DNA from: a bacterium
Lineage (GTDB): Bacteria > Patescibacteriota > UBA1384 > VFKW01
DNA: 64,000 bases
Direction: 5' to 3'
NCBI GenBank assembly: GCA_030647355.1
Contig: JAUSIS010000006.1
Location: 26,221 to 90,220, forward strand
Under the pieces are notes generated by a model. That model had not been told where the DNA came from. It saw only the letters and a program-made list of their open reading frames with translations, and searched no databases. A program made the translations under genes and the position numbers. Positions 21,483-63,000 of this stretch are shown here, piece after piece (positions within the stretch are counted from its first letter, which is position 1; each line of letters opens with the position of its first letter).

Positions 21483-21540
21483 TGAGCGTACTAGCCTCCG
21501 CCTCCGCAGCTGGCGGATGTGCTATGCCCTGCAAGGTTTT
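21483..21540. repeat. Degenerate copy of repeat family F2 (CCGCC-N4-GGCGG hairpin module)
   Basis: CTCCGCCTCCGCAGCTGGCGGATGTGCTATGCCC resembles the inner hairpin and 3' part of F2 copy 61125-61240 and the 41-nt palindromic insert in topA/recR. Confidence 0.45.
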
Positions 21541-31135: not shown

Positions 31136-31304
31136 AAATCCGAAGGATTTTTAATAAGCTTGTAAGCAGTAAGAAGTAAGTAATAAGCAGTAAGAAAATA
31201 TTGTTCGAGCGAAGTCGAGAACTACAAGGGATATGGATCCTGAAACAAGTTCGGGATGACGAATAACTTCTCGACAAGCTCGAAGAATAGCTCGGAGGGA
31301 AAAA

Positions 31305-32378: not shown

Positions 32379-32445
32379 CAATTAAGCTGGTAAGAAATAA
32401 GCAGTAAGCTGGTAAGAATTAAGAAATAATGAATGAGGAAAAGAG

Positions 32446-32856: not shown

Positions 32857-33172
32857 GTGGCAAGAGATATAGGGCAAAGGCCTTGTTCTCTGGTTGCTTA
32901 AAACCCCTCACCCTTTAAGCAAAGGATGAGGGATAATAAGGAGGTTCCCAGCTCTTTCTGAGCTTGTCAATATCTGTGTGTTGTTGGGACATTATGGCGA
33001 TATTAGCAGATAAGGATGATGAGTTGAGAAAGGGCTGGGTAGGTCGGTAACCGACAACGGTATTTTCATTCGTTTATTTGCAGCCAGAAATGGGAAAATG
33101 TCAAATGACAAATTTCCAATGTCAAATAATTAACCCGCCGTCGCTGAAGCTATGGCGGGCGAAGGAGAAAAA

Positions 33173-33752: not shown

Positions 33753-33769
33753 GTGTAGGGGAGGGGATT

Positions 33770-34110
33770 GCTTTGTCGCTTCGCTCCTCGCAATGACAGA
33801 GAACTGCTGTTCGCAGTGACACGGAAAGTGGAGAAGATTGCCGCGCTTCGCTCGCAATGACAGGAAAGTAAGATTGCCGCGCTACGCTCGCAATGACAGA
33901 AGGGAGATTGCTTCGGACGACACTCGCAATGACAAAGGAAGCTTCTCGCAATGACAAAGGAGAGATTGCTTCGGACGACGCTCGCAATGACACGGAAAGT
34001 GGAGAAGATTGCCGCGCTGCGCTCGTAATGACATAAGCACACTCGCGATGTTCGTCAGAAAGATTGCTTCGTCGCTACGCTCCTCGCAATGACACGGAAA
34101 AAACGCTGGT
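33770..34110. repeat. Cluster of ~7 hairpin repeat units (GATTGC-N12-17-GCAATGACA), the last one a long perfect palindrome
   Basis: Repeated GATTGCCGCGCT(T/A)CGCTCGCAATGACA and GATTGCTTCGGACGAC(A/G)CTCGCAATGACA units separated by 6-12 nt. 34067-34130 forms a ~28-bp inverted repeat. Confidence 0.85.
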
Positions 34111-34148: not shown

Positions 34149-34445
34149 ATGAAAGATAAAAATTATTACGTATATTTTATGATGAATTTCAGTAATACGG
34201 TTATTTATGTGGGAGTAACTAATGATTTAGCGAGAAGAGTTTACGAGCACAAAAATAAGCTTATTGATGGGTTTACTAAAAAATATAATGTAAATAAACT
34301 TGTGTATTATGAAGAGTATGATGATCCGCTGATCGCAATCGCCAGAGAAAAACAGATAAAAGCTGGATCGAGGGATAAAAAGATGAGGTTGATTGCGAAA
34401 GATAATCCAAGGTTTGAAGATTTGTACGATGGTTTGTTTGGTTGA
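34149..34445 (+). CDS. GIY-YIG domain nuclease family protein (~98 aa)
   Basis: YYVYFMMNFSNTVIYVGVTNDLARRVYEHK is a canonical GIY-YIG core. The ORF opens at 34089 inside the repeat; the Met at 34149 is the likely start. Flanked on both sides by the hairpin repeats. Confidence 0.8.
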   Translation: MKDKNYYVYFMMNFSNTVIYVGVTNDLARRVYEHKNKLIDGFTKKYNVNKLVYYEEYDDPLIAIAREKQIKAGSRDKKMRLIAKDNPRFEDLYDGLFG

Positions 34446-34446
34446 G

Positions 34447-34605
34447 AAAGAAGATTGCCGCGCTTCGCTCGCAATGACAGAGGGGAGATTGCTTCGGACG
34501 ACACTCGCAATGACAAAGGAAGCTTCTCGCAATGACAAAGGAGAGATTGCTTCGGACGACACTCGCAATGACAGAAATAGTGCTTGCGATGACGAAGGAA
34601 AGGTA
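34447..34605. repeat. Second cluster of GATTGC..GCAATGACA hairpin repeats (4-5 units)
   Basis: Same units as 33770-34110, starting immediately after the GIY-YIG stop codon. Confidence 0.85.
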
Positions 34606-35465: not shown

Positions 35466-35590
35466 AGGTTACTTCTCGACTTTGCTCAAAGAATAATGCC
35501 AGGCAGTAAGAAATAAACTGGGACAGGGAAAGATTGCCACGCTACGCTCGCAATGACACAGAAATAGTACTCGCAATGACAAGGAGGGGA
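35466..35590. repeat. Composite intergenic repeat: ACTTCTCGAC.. motif + GCAGTAAGAAATAAACTG motif + two GATTGC..GCAATGACA hairpin units
   Basis: Each module recurs elsewhere in the window (31140-31300, 49424-49460, 33770-34110). Confidence 0.7.
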
Positions 35591-36224: not shown

Positions 36225-36755
36225 ATGTTAATTGCAAAACATAAGATAGGAAATCACAGAAAAGGGTTTGGCATATTAGAGGTAATGATTGCCAGTATGA
36301 TTTTAGTTACAGTAGTCGGAGCGGTGGTGGCGATGGGGAGTGCCAGTGTGAGGGGTGGGTTGACGGCTTCCGATAAGACAACTGCCTACAATTTGGCGCA
36401 AGAGTGTTTGGAGAAGGCGCGGTCCGTGAGAGATGGCAATTGGGTGGATCAGAACATCCCTACGGCTACAGAGTGGAATACCAATCTAACCACAGCAAAT
36501 TTATCAATGTTAAGCGAATGTAAAACTACCTCGGTGGGTACACCGCAAGTTGAGTATACGAGAGGGGTAGTCGTAACAAATGTGCCGTGGTTTGATCCCA
36601 CTTCGGGAGATCCGCCTCAATATGGTGTTCCACTTCAGGATATCCCCGAAGATATGGTACAACAAATTACTGTAACAGTGAGTTGGTTGGGTGAGAATAG
36701 CAATCAGAGTTTGACGGGCAGCACTTATTTAACCGACTGGAAGATGATCAATTAG
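36225..36755 (+). CDS. Type IV minor pilin PilV-like
   Basis: HRKG|FGILEVMIASMIL is the classical PilV-type N-terminus. ~150-aa globular C-terminal domain. Confidence 0.7.
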   Translation: MLIAKHKIGNHRKGFGILEVMIASMILVTVVGAVVAMGSASVRGGLTASDKTTAYNLAQECLEKARSVRDGNWVDQNIPTATEWNTNLTTANLSMLSECKTTSVGTPQVEYTRGVVVTNVPWFDPTSGDPPQYGVPLQDIPEDMVQQITVTVSWLGENSNQSLTGSTYLTDWKMIN

Positions 36756-36791
36756 GTGACAGGTAACAGGGAACAGGAGACAGGAGAGTAA

Positions 36792-38919: not shown

Positions 38920-39110
38920 AGATTGCTTCGTCGCTACGCTCCTCGCAATGACACAGGAAAGTAAGATTGCCGCGCTACGCTCGCAATGACGAAGGAAGCT
39001 CCTCGCAATGACACAGGAAAGTAAGATTGCCGCGCTACGCTCGCAATGACAGGAAAGTAAGATTGCCACGCTTCGCTCGCAATGACACAGGAATGAGCTC
39101 GCAACGACAA
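38920..39110. repeat. Tandem array of ~36-nt GATTGC..GCAATGACA(GGAAAGTAA) hairpin repeats (4-5 units)
   Basis: GATTGCCGCGCTACGCTCGCAATGACAGGAAAGTAA repeated head-to-tail with minor variants. Same family as 33770-34605 and 35530-35590. Confidence 0.85.
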
Positions 39111-39138
39111 GGAAGGGGTTATATTAGGGAGATAGAAT

Positions 39139-48870: not shown

Positions 48871-48965
48871 CTTATCCTCTTCGGGGAGCGTTACGCTTCC
48901 TCGGCTTGAGGCCGATGAGCGCTGCACTACGCTTAACTCCCCTTAGAAGACAAGACCGCGTTATA
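48871..48965. repeat. Repeat family F2, copy 1 (structured ~75-nt element)
   Basis: CGCGGTCTT..CTTCGGGGAGCGTTACGCTTCC-[hairpin CTCGGCTTGAGGCCGATGAG]-CGCTGCACTACGCTTAACTCCCC..AAGACCGCG. Paralogues at 54047 and 61125. Confidence 0.8.
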
Positions 48966-50900: not shown

Positions 50901-50962
50901 ATTTCTAGGGCATTGATTTGTAAGTTTGGATGTTATAACATATAGTAATGTTTAGGAGGAAA

Positions 50963-53248
50963 ATGTCTAAATCCTTGGTTATAGTCGAAAGTCCGGCTAA
51001 AGCAAAGACAATTGAGAAATACTTAGGGAGCGGCTATAAAGTGCTGGCTTCTTTTGGTCATGTCAGGGATCTGCCTAAGAGTAAGTTGGGTGTTGATGTT
51101 AAGAAGAATTTTGAGCCAACATATATTGTGCCAACTAAAGCCAAGAAGGTATTGGCGAGTTTGAAAAGCGAGGCGGAAAAATCGGAAAAAATTTATCTGG
51201 CAACAGACTTTGACCGGGAAGGCGAAGCGATTGCTTGGCATATAATGCAAGCCACCGGCTCGCAAACTCAAAGCTCAATCCGCCAGCTGGCGGACAAAAC
51301 TCAAAAATATGGGAGGGTAACTTTCCATGAGATTACAAAGGAGGCAATTGTGCAAGCGTTTGAGCACCCACGCGAGATTGATATGGATTTAGTGGACGCT
51401 CAACAAGCCCGCAGAGTGCTTGATCGGCTCGTTGGCTATAAATTGAGCCCATTTCTTTGGAGAAAGGTGTATACGGGGCTCTCTGCGGGCAGAGTGCAGT
51501 CTGTAGCAGTGCGTTTGGTGGTAGATAGGGAGAGGGAAATAGAAGCTTTTAAGGTGCGGGAGTATTGGACTATTGAAGCGATTTTTTCCAAGAAACCGGA
51601 CAAGATTAAATTTGGCGCAACTTTAACTAAAATAGACGACAAACCTTTCAAGGAGGTGGATCAGAAGAAATTGGCGGAAGATCTGGTTAAGGATATTGAA
51701 GGGGGCAAATATAGCATTCTAGATATACAGAAAGCTGCTAAGACGAGAAGCCCAGCGCCGCCGTTTTCTACTTCAACATTACAACAGGAAGCAAATAGAA
51801 AGTTGCGTTTTTCAGCTAAGCAAACCATGACTTTAGCCCAGCATCTGTATGAGGGTGTAGACCTTGGAAGCGAGGGGTCTGCCGGATTGATTACGTATAT
51901 GAGAACGGATTCATATAATCTAGCCGAGAGCGCAATTCGTGAAGCTCGTCAGGTAATAGGTAAGGAGTTTGGTAAGGAATATGTGCCGCAGTCATCCAGA
52001 TTATATAAAACAAAAGCAAAGGGTGCTCAAGAAGCACATGAGGCGATTAGGCCTACTTTATTTAGCAGGACTCCGGACAGTGTGAGGAAATTTTTAGATA
52101 GTAGTCATTACAAACTTTATAAATTAATTTGGGAACGGGCGATTGCGTCCCAGATGGCAGATGCCCAAGTTGAAGAGACGGTAGCACAGATTGAGTCAAA
52201 AGGGGCTAGTAAGGTGTATGTCTTTACAGCCAAAGGAGCTATTGTCACTTTTGCCGGATTTTTAAAGGTGCATGAGGAAGGCAGGGATGAGATAGAAGAG
52301 GATGGCCTGTCTTTACTGCCTGATTTGGAGGTAGGAGAATCAGTGCATTTGGAAAATGTCGATGGAAGACAGCATTTTACTCAGCCACCGGGGCGATATA
52401 CGGAAGCTACTTTGGTGAAAGAGTTGGAGAAGAGGGGAATCGGCAGACCGTCAACTTATGCGCCTATTATGAGTACTATTGTTGATCGAGGTTATGTCCA
52501 AAAGTTAGAGGGCAGGTTTCATCCGCAGGATGTGGGACTTGTGGTTACAGATTTACTGACCGAGCATTTCCCGGCTATTGTTGACTATCAGTTTACCGCT
52601 AAAATGGAGGAAGAACTTGATGATATTGCAGAGGGTAAGCTGAAATGGCAGCCGGTGGTCAAAGAATTTTATGAACCATTGGCAAAAACTCTTGATGAAA
52701 AAATGGAGACAGTTGAGAAAAAGGATATAACCGAGGAAAAGACTGATGAAAAATGTCCTGAATGTAAGAAGGATTTGGTTATAAAACTTGGGCGTTTTGG
52801 GAAGTTTTATGCCTGTTCAGGTTACCCAGAATGTGAATATACACGGCCATATCTGGAGAACGAAGAGGGCGAAGCAATGTCGGCAAAAGAGGTTAAGGAG
52901 CTGACTGATGAAAAATGTCCAAAATGCGGGGCTCAGTTAGCGGTAAAACAGGGGAGATTTGGCAAGTTTTTAGGATGCAGTGAATATCCCAAGTGTCACT
53001 TTACTAAACAGATTGGAGCAGGGGAGCCAGTTAAATGTACAGAATGCGCCGGAGAGATAGTTATGAAGCGCACCAGGAGAGGGAAGCCATTTTGGGGGTG
53101 CTCAAACTATCCAAAATGCACACTAGCCTTCTGGAACGAACCTGTTGATAAAAGATGTCCAAAATGCAAGGCGATTATGGTAAAATCCGGGAAGGATAAG
53201 GTTAAATGCAGTAAGTGCGAGTATGAAGAGACTGCAAATAGCAGTTAG
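50963..53248 (+). CDS. topA: DNA topoisomerase I with four C-terminal zinc ribbons
   Basis: TOPRIM (LVIVESPAKAKTI, DFDREGEAIAW), Tyr-containing domain III, four CxxC..CxxC ribbons at the C-terminus. Start at the ATG at 50963 behind AGGAGGA. Carries the 41-nt palindromic insert at 51262-51305 in frame. Confidence 0.9.
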   Translation: MSKSLVIVESPAKAKTIEKYLGSGYKVLASFGHVRDLPKSKLGVDVKKNFEPTYIVPTKAKKVLASLKSEAEKSEKIYLATDFDREGEAIAWHIMQATGSQTQSSIRQLADKTQKYGRVTFHEITKEAIVQAFEHPREIDMDLVDAQQARRVLDRLVGYKLSPFLWRKVYTGLSAGRVQSVAVRLVVDREREIEAFKVREYWTIEAIFSKKPDKIKFGATLTKIDDKPFKEVDQKKLAEDLVKDIEGGKYSILDIQKAAKTRSPAPPFSTSTLQQEANRKLRFSAKQTMTLAQHLYEGVDLGSEGSAGLITYMRTDSYNLAESAIREARQVIGKEFGKEYVPQSSRLYKTKAKGAQEAHEAIRPTLFSRTPDSVRKFLDSSHYKLYKLIWERAIASQMADAQVEETVAQIESKGASKVYVFTAKGAIVTFAGFLKVHEEGRDEIEEDGLSLLPDLEVGESVHLENVDGRQHFTQPPGRYTEATLVKELEKRGIGRPSTYAPIMSTIVDRGYVQKLEGRFHPQDVGLVVTDLLTEHFPAIVDYQFTAKMEEELDDIAEGKLKWQPVVKEFYEPLAKTLDEKMETVEKKDITEEKTDEKCPECKKDLVIKLGRFGKFYACSGYPECEYTRPYLENEEGEAMSAKEVKELTDEKCPKCGAQLAVKQGRFGKFLGCSEYPKCHFTKQIGAGEPVKCTECAGEIVMKRTRRGKPFWGCSNYPKCTLAFWNEPVDKRCPKCKAIMVKSGKDKVKCSKCEYEETANSS

Positions 53249-53255
53249 ATACCCT

Positions 53256-53366
53256 TCTTTTAAGGCACGTGTTCGTCCGCTCCAGCGGCGGACGCCACTC
53301 TCTCTCGACTAGTGACCCGCATCTGCGGGACCAAGCTCACTGCGTCTGCGAGAGGTCTTAAAGAAG
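53256..53366. repeat. Repeat family F1, copy a (structured ~100-nt element)
   Basis: CACGTGTTC-[GTCCGCTCCAGCGGCGGAC]-GCCACTCTCTCTCGAC-[..CCCGCATCTGCGGG..]CCAAGCTCACTGCGTCTGCGAGAGGTC, flanked by the inverted repeats TTCTTTTAAG/CTTAAAGAAG. Confidence 0.8.
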
Positions 53367-53410: not shown

Positions 53411-54046
53411 ATGGCGGGGAGTATTCCTAAATCAGTACGAGATTTAATTGAAGAATTTGGTAAGCTGCCTGGGATAGGTCCAAAAACAGCTAGCCGGCTA
53501 ACTTTCTATTTATTAACAAAACCTGAGGAGGACGTGGAACGGTTGGCGAAATCGGTTGACGGTCTTAAGAAGAATCTGATTATTTGCTCTGAATGTTATA
53601 ATATCGCCGAAAGTGATCCATGCTCTATTTGTGGCGATCAAGCAAGAGAGAAAGAAAAGGTATGCGTAGTAGAGGAACCCTTGGATGTAGTGGCGATAGA
53701 GAAAACGGGGTTTGATGGCAGATATCATGTTTTGGGCGGGGTGATCTCTCCGATAAACGGAATTGGTCCGGAGAACCTTCGAATGGCAGAATTATTCAAT
53801 CGTATAAAAGGCAAGGGTGTGAAAGAGGTTATTTTGGCGACCGATCCTTCCTTAGAAGGTGAGGCCACCGCTATGTATATAAGCAACTATGTTGCTAAAT
53901 TCAAATCTCAATCCGCCAGCTGGCGGACAAATCTCAAAAATTTAAAAGTTACTAGAATTGCCCGCGGTTTACCTGTGGGAGGGGATTTGGAATATGCAGA
54001 TGAAATGACTTTGACGAGGGCATTGGAGGGAAGGAAAGAGTACTGA
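53411..54046 (+). CDS. recR: Recombination protein RecR
   Basis: HhH (LPGIGPKTASRL), C4 zinc finger (CSECYN..CSIC), Toprim domain, C-terminal GLPVGGDLEYAD. The annotated ORF start at 53312 only translates the F1 repeat; the Met at 53411 is the real start. Carries the second copy of the 41-nt insert (53903-53946). Confidence 0.85.
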   Translation: MAGSIPKSVRDLIEEFGKLPGIGPKTASRLTFYLLTKPEEDVERLAKSVDGLKKNLIICSECYNIAESDPCSICGDQAREKEKVCVVEEPLDVVAIEKTGFDGRYHVLGGVISPINGIGPENLRMAELFNRIKGKGVKEVILATDPSLEGEATAMYISNYVAKFKSQSASWRTNLKNLKVTRIARGLPVGGDLEYADEMTLTRALEGRKEY

Positions 54047-54150
54047 TTATGGGGGGAACATTTATTCGGAGAGCGTTTCGCTTCCCGATACAGTTGTGTC
54101 GGGAGCACTGCACTTCGCTTAACTCTCCTCATAAAAATTCCCCTCGTTAT
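54047..54150. repeat. Repeat family F2, copy 2
   Basis: GGGGGGAA..TTCGGAGAGCGTTTCGCTTCC-[CGATACAGTTGTGTCGGG]-AGCACTGCACTTCGCTTAACTCTCC..TTCCCCTC. Confidence 0.8.
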
Positions 54151-60633: not shown

Positions 60634-60769
60634 CGCCTTTCGAAGCACGCGTTCAATTTTTCCAGCGAAAATTGCCGCTCTATCTCGGCTCGCAACCCAG
60701 CCCTTTTTACAAAAGAGCTGGGACCAAGCTTGCTTCACCTCCGATAGGCATCTCAATGGAAGATATTGC
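60634..60769. repeat. Repeat family F1, copy c, flanked by the 11-bp inverted repeat GCAATATCTTC/GAAGATATTGC
   Basis: CACGCGTTC-[AATTTTTCCAGCGAAAATT]-GCCGCTCTATCTCGGC-[..CCCAGCCC.TTT.AGAGCTGGG..]ACCAAGCTTGCTTCACCTCCGATAGGC. Confidence 0.8.
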
Positions 60770-61124: not shown

Positions 61125-61240
61125 CTCGGCGATGAGGGTATAAGCTATTCGGGAAGCGTTTCTCCGCCATCCGCCAATCGGCGGAGGCGGATGCACTACG
61201 CTTAACTTCCCTCATAGCACATACCCTCATCTTAATTGCT
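61125..61240. repeat. Repeat family F2, copy 3, closed by the perfect 11-bp helix GATGAGGGTAT/ATACCCTCATC
   Basis: ..TTCGGGAAGCGTTTCTCCGCCATCCGCCAATCGGCGGAGGCGGATGCACTACGCTTAACTTCCCTCATAGCAC.. Confidence 0.8.
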
Positions 61241-62867: not shown

Positions 62868-63000
62868 TCAAGAGTATATCTTTCAAAGACACGCGTTCGT
62901 CCGCTCCTGCGGCGGATGCCGCTCGCCCTCGGATTCCTTTCGCCTTCGGCGAACCAAGCAAGAAATCCTGCGAGAGGTCTTCTCAAAACATACTCTTGAA
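62868..63000. repeat. Repeat family F1, copy d, flanked by the inverted repeat TTCAAGAGTAT/ATACTCTTGAA
   Basis: ACACGCGTTC-[GTCCGCTCCTGCGGCGGAT]-GCCGCTCGCCCTCGGA-[TTCCTTTCGCCTTCGGCGAA]-CCAAGCAAGAAATCCTGCGAGAGGTC. Confidence 0.8.

Follow-up and report, generated by a model that had tools for sequence, protein, structure and literature searches.

Palindromic repeats that settle inside genes or scatter through AT-rich genomes are best known from three systems. Rickettsia palindromic elements (RPEs) measure ~100-150 bp, are confined to Rickettsia and encode, family by family, a conserved peptide in one reading frame (Ogata et al. 2000, as relayed in PMC10969869). The GC clusters of yeast mitochondria, for example GC42, are ~40 nt long, combine a conserved stem with a variable loop and short flank repeats, and merge or nest by a mechanism that is unknown (PMC4478555). 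Repetitive extragenic palindromic (REP) elements, which come with REP-associated tyrosine (RAYT) transposases, are tagged by GTAG or CGTC according to PMC3733652. Here we analyse a 64,000-nt window of a genome assigned to the Patescibacteriota (GenBank assembly GCA_030647355.1, contig JAUSIS010000006.1, positions 26,221 to 90,220), in which the genes topA and recR each contain a short GC-rich palindrome with nearly the same surroundings. An earlier interpretation made from the letters and open reading frames (ORFs) of the window, the sequence-only reading, had likened this pair to RPEs. We conclude that the two segments are probably copies of a previously undescribed family of tiny GC-rich palindromic repeats in AT-rich genomes of the Candidate Phyla Radiation (CPR)/Patescibacteria type.

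The segment common to both genes spans 45 nt on the + strand, at 51264-51308 in topA and 53897-53941 in recR, with 42/45 identical positions (93%; repeat family D14). Its centre is an exact 16-nt palindrome, TCCGCCAGCTGGCGGA, at 51279-51294 and 53912-53927, which consists of a 6-bp GC-rich stem and an AGCT loop. Direct repeats of 10 nt on the + strand enclose the palindrome: CAAAGCTCAA (51269-51278) and CAAAACTCAA (51295-51304), a 9/10 match, in topA, and CAAATCTCAA on both sides (53902-53911 and 53928-53937), a 10/10 match, in recR. The sequence-only reading had recognised two near-identical 41-nt strings around a perfect palindrome with CTCAA flanks. The strings do agree at 39/41 positions, starting at 51268 and 53901 and so 2-6 nt from where they had been placed, the palindrome is exact at both sites, and the CTCAA motifs form part of the 10-nt repeats. 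With up to three mismatches, the core has four matches in the window where 0.10 are expected, a count reached in 0/100 shuffles. The core is 75% GC by direct count, and its RNA hairpin has a minimum free energy (MFE) of -10.8 kcal/mol, with z = -3.6 for the topA copy and z of about -4 for the core hairpin. Both copies lie within long ORFs of the + strand. The topA ORF (50948-53248), with dprA directly upstream, encodes by Pfam a type IA DNA topoisomerase with Toprim, Topoisom_bac and three Zn ribbons, and the recR ORF (53411-54046; 211 aa) is RecR by Pfam; named relatives of the two proteins belong to Berkelbacteria and other Patescibacteria. The ORF translations bear out the claim that the element is read in different phases, as ..QTQSSIRQLADKTQKY.. 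in TopA, where the shared segment gives ..QTQSSIRQLADKTQK.., and as ..KSQSASWRTNLKNLK.. in RecR, where it gives ..KFKSQSASWRTNLKNLK...

Comparison with solved structures places both inserts in loops. The residues encoded by the element correspond to an 11-residue gap in the alignment to E. coli TopA (9gda and others) and to a 12-residue (36 nt) gap in the alignment to RecR of T. tengcongensis (3vdp), which agrees with the earlier statement that homologues are about 11-12 residues shorter at these loops. The topA segment is absent from 39/39 closest TopA homologues (54-78% identity), and the topA DNA exceeds its counterparts in other genomes, here named by our locus numbers, by 33 nt (L021) and 27 nt (L020). 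In an AlphaFold2 model computed from 54 homologues, RecR keeps its fold (mean pLDDT, the predicted local distance difference test, of 91), and residues 165-176 are predicted to extend a Toprim helix and to form a short loop, where confidence falls to ~82. The TopA and RecR inserts occupy the same structural position, namely the loop after the D-x-D...EGEA helix of the common Toprim fold, so that the hosts are not unrelated at the insertion site. What remains of the description "two unrelated essential genes" is that the element sits in frame in two different essential genes; the word "unrelated" does not hold for the loop. Because other hosts have no Toprim domain, we regard this loop as permissive and not as a target. 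Elsewhere, gaps versus solved homologues amount to 11 residues in GatA and 10 in MnmA, and the comparisons for UppS and SecA are ambiguous, their insert regions being variable in any case.

The element is dispersed far beyond this window. The exact 25-mer CTCAATCCGCCAGCTGGCGGACAAA has matches in 19 further stretches of species-representative genomes, from bins labelled, among others, as Gottesmanbacteria, Roizmanbacteria (two contigs), Wildermuthbacteria, Saccharibacteria (three bins) and "Patescibacteria group"; the search of related genomes that the sequence-only reading had proposed thus yields identical copies in several CPR groups. Fourteen of these 25-mer copies, and the two copies of the window in addition, lie within long ORFs, always with the C/A-rich strand coding. 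Their hosts, identified by Pfam, include NAD(P)HX dehydratase, an M24 peptidase, a class I aminoacyl-tRNA synthetase, MnmA, UvrA, a LeuRS-type anticodon-binding domain, SecA, a class V aminotransferase (NifS-like), GatA, UppS and Tgt. With TopA and RecR, at least 13 different Pfam-identified host families carry copies, all in frame. The 36-nt unit of recR is identical at 36/36 positions to the copy in mnmA of another lineage (L006). An 18-mer, AATCCGCCAGCTGGCGGA, occurs in at least 120 metagenome stretches, and all sequence examined holds 154 core copies, about half of them within long ORFs, in surroundings with a median GC of 40%. Two cores lie within a few kb of each other in 12 of the 140 core-bearing sources. 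The C-terminal end of one ORF in L052 (2184-2241) is a tandem ..EANPPAGGEEPKTEEANPPAGGEE.. tail, encoded by two cores that lie 42 nt apart; in this case a tandem duplication inside coding sequence has copied the element together with its flank.

The copies split into two classes, one with the layout CAA, core, CAA (n=33) and one in which a bare core stands in other flanks. In the CAA class the 10 nt on each side are direct repeats, CAAATCTCAA, CAAAACTCAA, CAAAGCTCAA, CAAATTCCAA or CAAAAATCAA, and the A/C-rich repeat of this flanked subfamily can be written as CAAANCTCAA. The left and right 10-mers resemble each other more within a copy than between copies (permutation p = 1e-4). In six copies, including that of recR, the repeat is perfect (10/10), which gives a unit of 36 nt; the topA-type flank CAAAGCTCAA is also found in L001-L004 and L009. 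The 10-nt flanks are in register with A-rich repeats of period 7. Arrays of such A/T-rich heptamers (such as AAATCTC, AAAATTC and GTAAGAA) number 205 in L027-L146 compared with 21 in locally shuffled controls (Tandem Repeats Finder score of at least 30), a roughly ten-fold excess, and period 7 is over-represented there beyond any other period. The window has such arrays at 31162-31196, 32390-32434, 33096-33127 and 36754-36787. Most period-7 repeats occur without any palindrome, and heptamer arrays encode the RecR loop in L020, L021, L024 and L026. A 7-nt unit is an odd choice for coding DNA, where each slip shifts the frame.

Bare cores are found between GAA and GAA, between AAA and AAA, in terminator-like contexts and at sites beside tRNA genes. 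Their association with heptamer arrays is not significant (6 versus 3.8 expected), and a 3-nt flank repeat surrounds 20 of them versus 10.4 expected (p = 0.0008). Cores are nested in larger palindromes, some of them REP-like, in 13 cases versus 4.3 expected; in L112 and L125, TCCGCCAGCTGGCGGA is located in the loop of a REP-like unit of the kind that is clustered in the window. The same stem also exists with other loops, AAAG in L023 and AATC at 61170 of the window as well as AGCT. Pair counts over the 33 flanked copies gave no covariation beyond composition, so that only the core hairpin is meaningful as a structure. The idea of a fixed unit of ~36-41 nt had to be given up. Instead, the element is modular, a 16-nt core often placed between 10-nt direct repeats, and its sizes vary.

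Variable size is equally evident from the net lengths that the element adds to genes. In mnmA of L006 the gain is exactly 30 nt relative to an 87% identical orthologue, and bare or loop-variant cores in recR add 12 and 15 nt relative to partners of ~84% identity. The recR insert of the window amounts to 36 nt versus 3vdp and to 12 nt versus L020. The net sizes in genes, 12, 15, 30, 33 and 36 nt, and also the 27 nt of topA versus L020, are all multiples of three, as the sequence-only reading had proposed to check; the shorter MnmA and RecR orthologues add to the evidence from the TopA alignment it had likewise suggested. The RecR loop is a hot spot in which five different GC hairpins were found across lineages. 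Among ~50 orthologues it holds the flanked palindrome in the window, a bare palindrome translated as NPPAGG in L022, the loop variant TCCGCCAAAGGGCGGA in L023 and heptamers alone in L026, and unrelated GC hairpins such as TTCGAGTCTGAGCCTGAGGGCTCATCCCTCAGAGTCGAA enlarge it by 45 nt in L024 (1126-1200) and by 42 nt in L025 (1330-1390). These unrelated hairpins imply that in-frame hairpin insertion in these bacteria spans more than one sequence family. A comparable case is the MnmA loop that holds the element in L006: in a 78% identical MnmA (L149, 1400-1450) it contains a different, non-palindromic segment of ~10 residues, and this loop is a general indel hot spot.

Orientation and frame follow a strict pattern within genes. 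Of the 33 flanked copies, 20 lie in long ORFs and 13 outside, the count by location that had been called for. All 20 in ORFs are in sense orientation, distributed 8/3/9 over the three phases, with a probability of ~0.003 under a 3:1 prior; the 13 others face either way, ~4 being co-oriented with neighbouring genes and 8 opposed. An intrinsic orientation bias tied to transcription or replication is ruled out by these intergenic copies. The C/A-rich strand is free of stop codons in all three phases; on the other strand, the 36-nt unit contains TGA in two phases out of three, and further heptamers close the remaining one. Selection against stops, probably joined by selection against the Cys- and hydrophobic-rich antisense peptide, suffices to account for the 20/20 sense copies. 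The peptides of the three phases are LNPPAGGQ, QSASWRT and SIRQLADK, and 35/46 bare-core copies in ORFs are translated as NPPAGG, an excess consistent with a filter for Pro/Gly-rich, loop-friendly peptides. The coding sequences therefore point to selection, and not to the mechanism of insertion, as the probable source of the orientation and frame pattern in genes. The constraints on frame, stops and size also argue that the insert is translated, since a spliced or bypassed segment would need none of them.

In the explanation we favour, new copies would arise from other copies by a copy-and-insert process and would enter A-rich or single-strand-prone DNA in either orientation. Within essential genes, a copy would be kept only if its net length is a multiple of three, if it is free of stops and if it falls in a permissive surface loop; surviving copies would be transcribed and translated as an extra hydrophilic loop of 4-12 residues. 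As to the route, we prefer, as a guess, either a hairpin-dependent entry into single-stranded DNA or recombination of taken-up DNA through short homology, in view of the nesting in palindrome loops, the preference for A-rich repeats and the local pairs. A bolder version is possible, although we hold it to be doubtful: the palindrome would then be the core of the smallest mobile DNA known, a hairpin without coding capacity or conventional ends that spreads horizontally among deeply divergent CPR lineages, possibly by DNA uptake, integrates into single-stranded or A-rich DNA by an undescribed mechanism and serves as an ongoing source of surface loops in essential proteins.

Several points weigh against a family of mobile repeats. 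The closest comparator with an empty site is 87% identical at the protein level, too distant to fix the exact insert boundaries or any target duplication. The direct-repeat layout is in the minority among bare cores, as only 3/126 bare-core copies have a 10-nt repeat with at least 8/10 matching positions (0.4 expected). Copy number is low, with 2-3 copies in this 64 kb and mostly one 25-mer match per representative genome, unlike the bursts of REP elements or RPEs. The metagenome stretches (L027-L146, 0.73 Mb) are a sample of at least 120, and the labels of other 25-mer bins, namely Bacteroidales, Bdellovibrionales and Gammaproteobacteria (six contigs in one bin), are unverified. Neither a transposase nor an autonomous parent turned up, a genome-wide search not having been made. 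Finally, translation of the insert is something we infer from the coding sequence, and the conservation of the core across lineages could reflect selection for function. With regard to the labels, flanked copies lie in a Bacteroidales- and a Bdellovibrionales-labelled bin (L008, 5652-5667, and L015, 2878-2893), and the L008 copy stands between complete purH and mreB genes, an unusual gene content for CPR. The element may thus also exist outside CPR, or these two bins may be mislabelled or chimeric.

Selection for function would be the whole explanation if the palindrome were a cis-signal, be it the binding site of a conserved dimeric DNA-binding protein, a hairpin at which antisense or read-through transcription ends, or a signal for mRNA pausing or stability; genes would then be one of several kinds of place that tolerate it. 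We judge this unlikely. All 154 copies have the 16-nt core unchanged between variable flanks, but this invariance is partly a product of the search patterns. The loop variants in L023 and at 61170 preserve the stem, some intergenic copies lie just past stop codons and have T-rich tails (L008, 44 nt after purH; L029; L059; L134), and for ~8/12 intergenic flanked copies the U/G-rich strand is in the transcript of the upstream gene. Against this, covariation supports no structure past the core, and copies show no consistent position relative to genes, since they occur in three phases and in loops of at least 13 unrelated proteins, and also next to tRNAs and nested in other palindromes. Singletons of the 8-mer half-site show hardly any excess (4 per 64 kb versus 1.24 expected), the density is far below that of an uptake or architectural signal, and a decayed copy exists at 21503-21517. 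A purely local origin of the topA/recR pair, by ectopic gene conversion or template switching between two Toprim genes 2.6 kb apart, would make the pair uninformative on mobility. The two genes are adjacent, their inserts sit in the equivalent Toprim loop, and the 12/140 sources with two cores within a few kb suggest that local spread occurs. Still, we think such an event improbable here: the coding DNA around the two sites is dissimilar outside the element, the recR copy matches the L006 mnmA copy without a difference, L001-L004 and L009 also have the topA-type flank CAAAGCTCAA, and most hosts have no Toprim domain. At best, it would account for the second copy and not for the family.

The superficial likeness to a bypass element, a GC hairpin with identical short direct repeats in a topoisomerase gene, raises the question whether the insert is cut from the mRNA or bypassed by the ribosome, with the direct repeats as take-off and landing sites. 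This is very improbable, as the flanked copies in genes are in frame and stop-free in 20/20 cases and seen only in the stop-free orientation, net sizes are always multiples of three although a bypassed or spliced element would be unconstrained, and the "take-off" position has no stop codon. Chimeric library molecules can yield perfect palindromes, and where many unrelated assemblies have one sequence in common, a reagent may be suspected, so an artefact of sequencing, assembly or contamination, such as an adapter-like palindrome from library construction, also has to be considered. We regard it as hardly credible: the assemblies that contain the element come from many projects and assemblers independent of one another (RIFCSP, GW2011, binchicken co-assemblies, JGI, ENA, Logan), its copies in genes always keep frame and orientation, its flanks vary by site, decayed and loop-variant copies exist, and plasmid and phage collections gave no matches. 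A dispersed family of tiny palindromic repeats, whose copies in genes would have passed through selection, remains the explanation we prefer.

A number of further candidates were tried and rejected. A structural RNA (a tRNA arm or rRNA, for example) as the shared template behind the identity across lineages finds no support, because the window's Rfam matches are all tRNAs and no core has any match, ARAGORN called no tRNA over the tRNA-like core contexts, and the two such contexts are fragments beside tRNA clusters. A DNA uptake signal would be expected about once per kb, far above the half-site count given above. Arrays of TIGR (tandem interspaced guide RNA), which neighbour the gene for Tas (a Nop-domain protein), consist of tandem units in which box C/D motifs bound two different spacers (bioRxiv 10.64898/2026.09.09.750476). 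The 36-nt size and the link to CPR suggested such a TIGR-Tas or guide-RNA unit, but the copies are solitary, lie in genes between identical flanks and are laid out neither as an array nor with box C/D motifs; a search for Tas was not made. An extended antisense hairpin through G.U-paired direct repeats reaches an MFE of -15 to -18 versus -10.8 kcal/mol, and this is an effect of composition: its pairing and covariation were equalled by 104/500 and 91/500 shuffles, respectively. A target-site duplication of 7 or 10 nt is perfect at few sites, fails at L007, L010, L013 and L016 and would give net lengths that are not multiples of three; the core plus one 10-nt duplication adds 26 nt net, which would break the frame. 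A phage or plasmid vector was dismissed, since the flanked form had no matches in viral contigs and no BLAST matches in plasmid and phage collections, and the 8 viral matches of the bare core lie in contigs of 50-63% GC with unrelated flanks. The L008 copy is not an antisense insertion that splits a gene, as its flanking ORFs are complete PurH and MreB. In the literature searched, no paper contained the sequence and none described such elements in CPR.

Other hairpins of the window had been suggested to share an origin with the element, and this holds in part. The intergenic sequence TCCGC-AGCTGGCGGA at 21503-21517, beside a tRNA gene, equals the core with a 1-nt (C) deletion and is plausible as a decayed third copy. 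The kinship of the doubled-stem hairpin TCCGCCA TCCGCC AATC GGCGGA GGCGGA at 61163-61191 is uncertain; its part at 61170-61185 has the same 6-bp stem with another loop, and a common origin is no more than possible. This hairpin is the variable part of a scaffold repeat with three copies (~48.88, 54.06 and 61.13 kb), the other two of which carry unrelated hairpins. The scaffold, at 48880-48950, 54060-54140 and 61130-61222, reads GGRAGCGTT.CGCTTCC-[variable GC hairpin]-GCACT.CGCTTAACT.CCC. Conserved outer parts around an inner hairpin that is wholly different from copy to copy are what a structured RNA or a modular repeat would show; Rfam gave no match to the scaffold. Of the copies, one sits directly upstream of rplK and another directly downstream of recR. 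A further intergenic repeat, AAGGCACGTGTTCGTCCGCTCCAGCGGCGGACGCCACTCTCTCTCG, with a GTCCGC...GCGGAC hairpin, occurs at 53262-53307, 60642-60687 and 62886-62931, its first copy lying 14 nt past the topA stop codon. Clusters of 28-36-nt palindromes (AAGATTGCCGCGCTTCGCTCGCAATGACA; on the reverse strand TGTCATTGCGAG...) are found at 33765-34101, 34428-34582, 35507-35585 and 38920-39136, some at 36-nt spacing, between small ORFs and with the look of REP-type extragenic repeats. Between 35663 and 42419, five paralogous ORF starts ~900 nt apart have a common 82-nt segment that encodes a type IV pilin-like N-terminus (..GFTLIELLVVISIIGILA..); the region is occupied by pilin-like genes that form a tandem family. 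Over the whole window (1-64000), the GC skew is extreme and positive throughout, at +0.15 to +0.33 in each 4-kb bin, the + strand containing far more G than C. A Microgenomates genome reportedly has an unusual strand composition disparity.

If the favoured explanation is true, CPR/Patescibacteria have their own counterpart of the Rickettsia RPEs and the mitochondrial GC clusters, a hairpin repeat an order of magnitude below RPE size that is identical across anciently diverged lineages and has been fixed repeatedly in essential genes (TopA, RecR, SecA, UvrA, aminoacyl-tRNA synthetases and others). It would provide a marker, simple and searchable, by which recent exchange of DNA between uncultured ultra-small bacteria could be traced, a natural map of insertion-tolerant loops in core proteins and a tractable case for the movement of tiny palindromic repeats without a transposase. 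Annotation is affected too: lineage-specific indels that stem from the inserts and their surrounding period-7 repeats can mislead marker-gene alignments and phylogenies.

How the element relates to described systems depends on the feature considered. With MITEs (miniature transposable elements with inverted repeats) it shares two 8-nt inverted arms, TCCGCCAG and CTGGCGGA, a non-coding and dispersed nature and, in some copies, direct repeats at the ends. However, it measures 16-45 nt instead of the usual 50-500 bp and has no internal sequence, and its flank repeats, of 3 or 10 nt in different subsets of copies, form no clearly consistent target-site duplication. No paired copies were seen to flank a transposase, as a parent insertion sequence with matching ends would show, in the stretches analysed, a genome-wide search not having been made; a pair of copies in L014 flanks an ORF without a Pfam match. 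Bypass elements, such as that of T4 gene 60 or the mitochondrial "byps", likewise combine a GC hairpin with matching flank repeats in a coding region, including that of a topoisomerase gene, whereas our element keeps the frame and is stop-free, which suggests read-through translation. REP elements and our element are both hairpin-forming repeats in the range of 20-40 nt, which probably act as hairpins in single-stranded form; some cores are nested in REP-like palindromes, and the window contains REP-like clusters at 33.8-39.1 kb. Unlike REP elements as outlined in PMC3733652, the element has no GTAG or CGTC tag, its flanks being CTCAA/CAAA or variable, and it is neither exclusively extragenic nor high-copy nor arranged in inverted doublets; it has so far been linked to no RAYT gene, the analysis having covered 64 kb of a larger contig.

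The proposed likeness to RPEs stands as far as behaviour is concerned, with dispersed in-frame copies in unrelated genes, and fails as regards membership. In both cases, palindromic repeats lie in frame in many unrelated housekeeping genes of reduced-genome bacteria, in loops and compatible with fold and function, and no transposase is known for either. In contrast to RPEs as characterised in PMC10969869, the element adds 12-36 nt (with a shared segment of 45 nt) instead of ~100-150 bp and is read in all three phases instead of yielding a one-frame peptide. It is also found, with one and the same core, in several CPR lineages and in few copies per genome, its hosts being CPR-type metagenome-assembled genomes. 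With the yeast mitochondrial GC clusters (PMC4478555), it has in common that short GC-rich palindromes are dispersed through an AT-rich genome, with a conserved stem, a more variable loop and short flanking direct repeats, and that there are signs of transfer from lineage to lineage; the nesting known from GC clusters was found here as well, as were doubled arms at 61163-61191. GC clusters differ in being organellar and mostly intergenic, in occurring in hundreds of copies and in their AG target duplication (PMC4478555), while our element resides in bacterial genomes at low copy number, with many copies in genes and with 10-nt A-rich flanks or none. The element is a member of neither system, and its anatomy fits the yeast mitochondrial GC clusters even better than it fits the RPEs.

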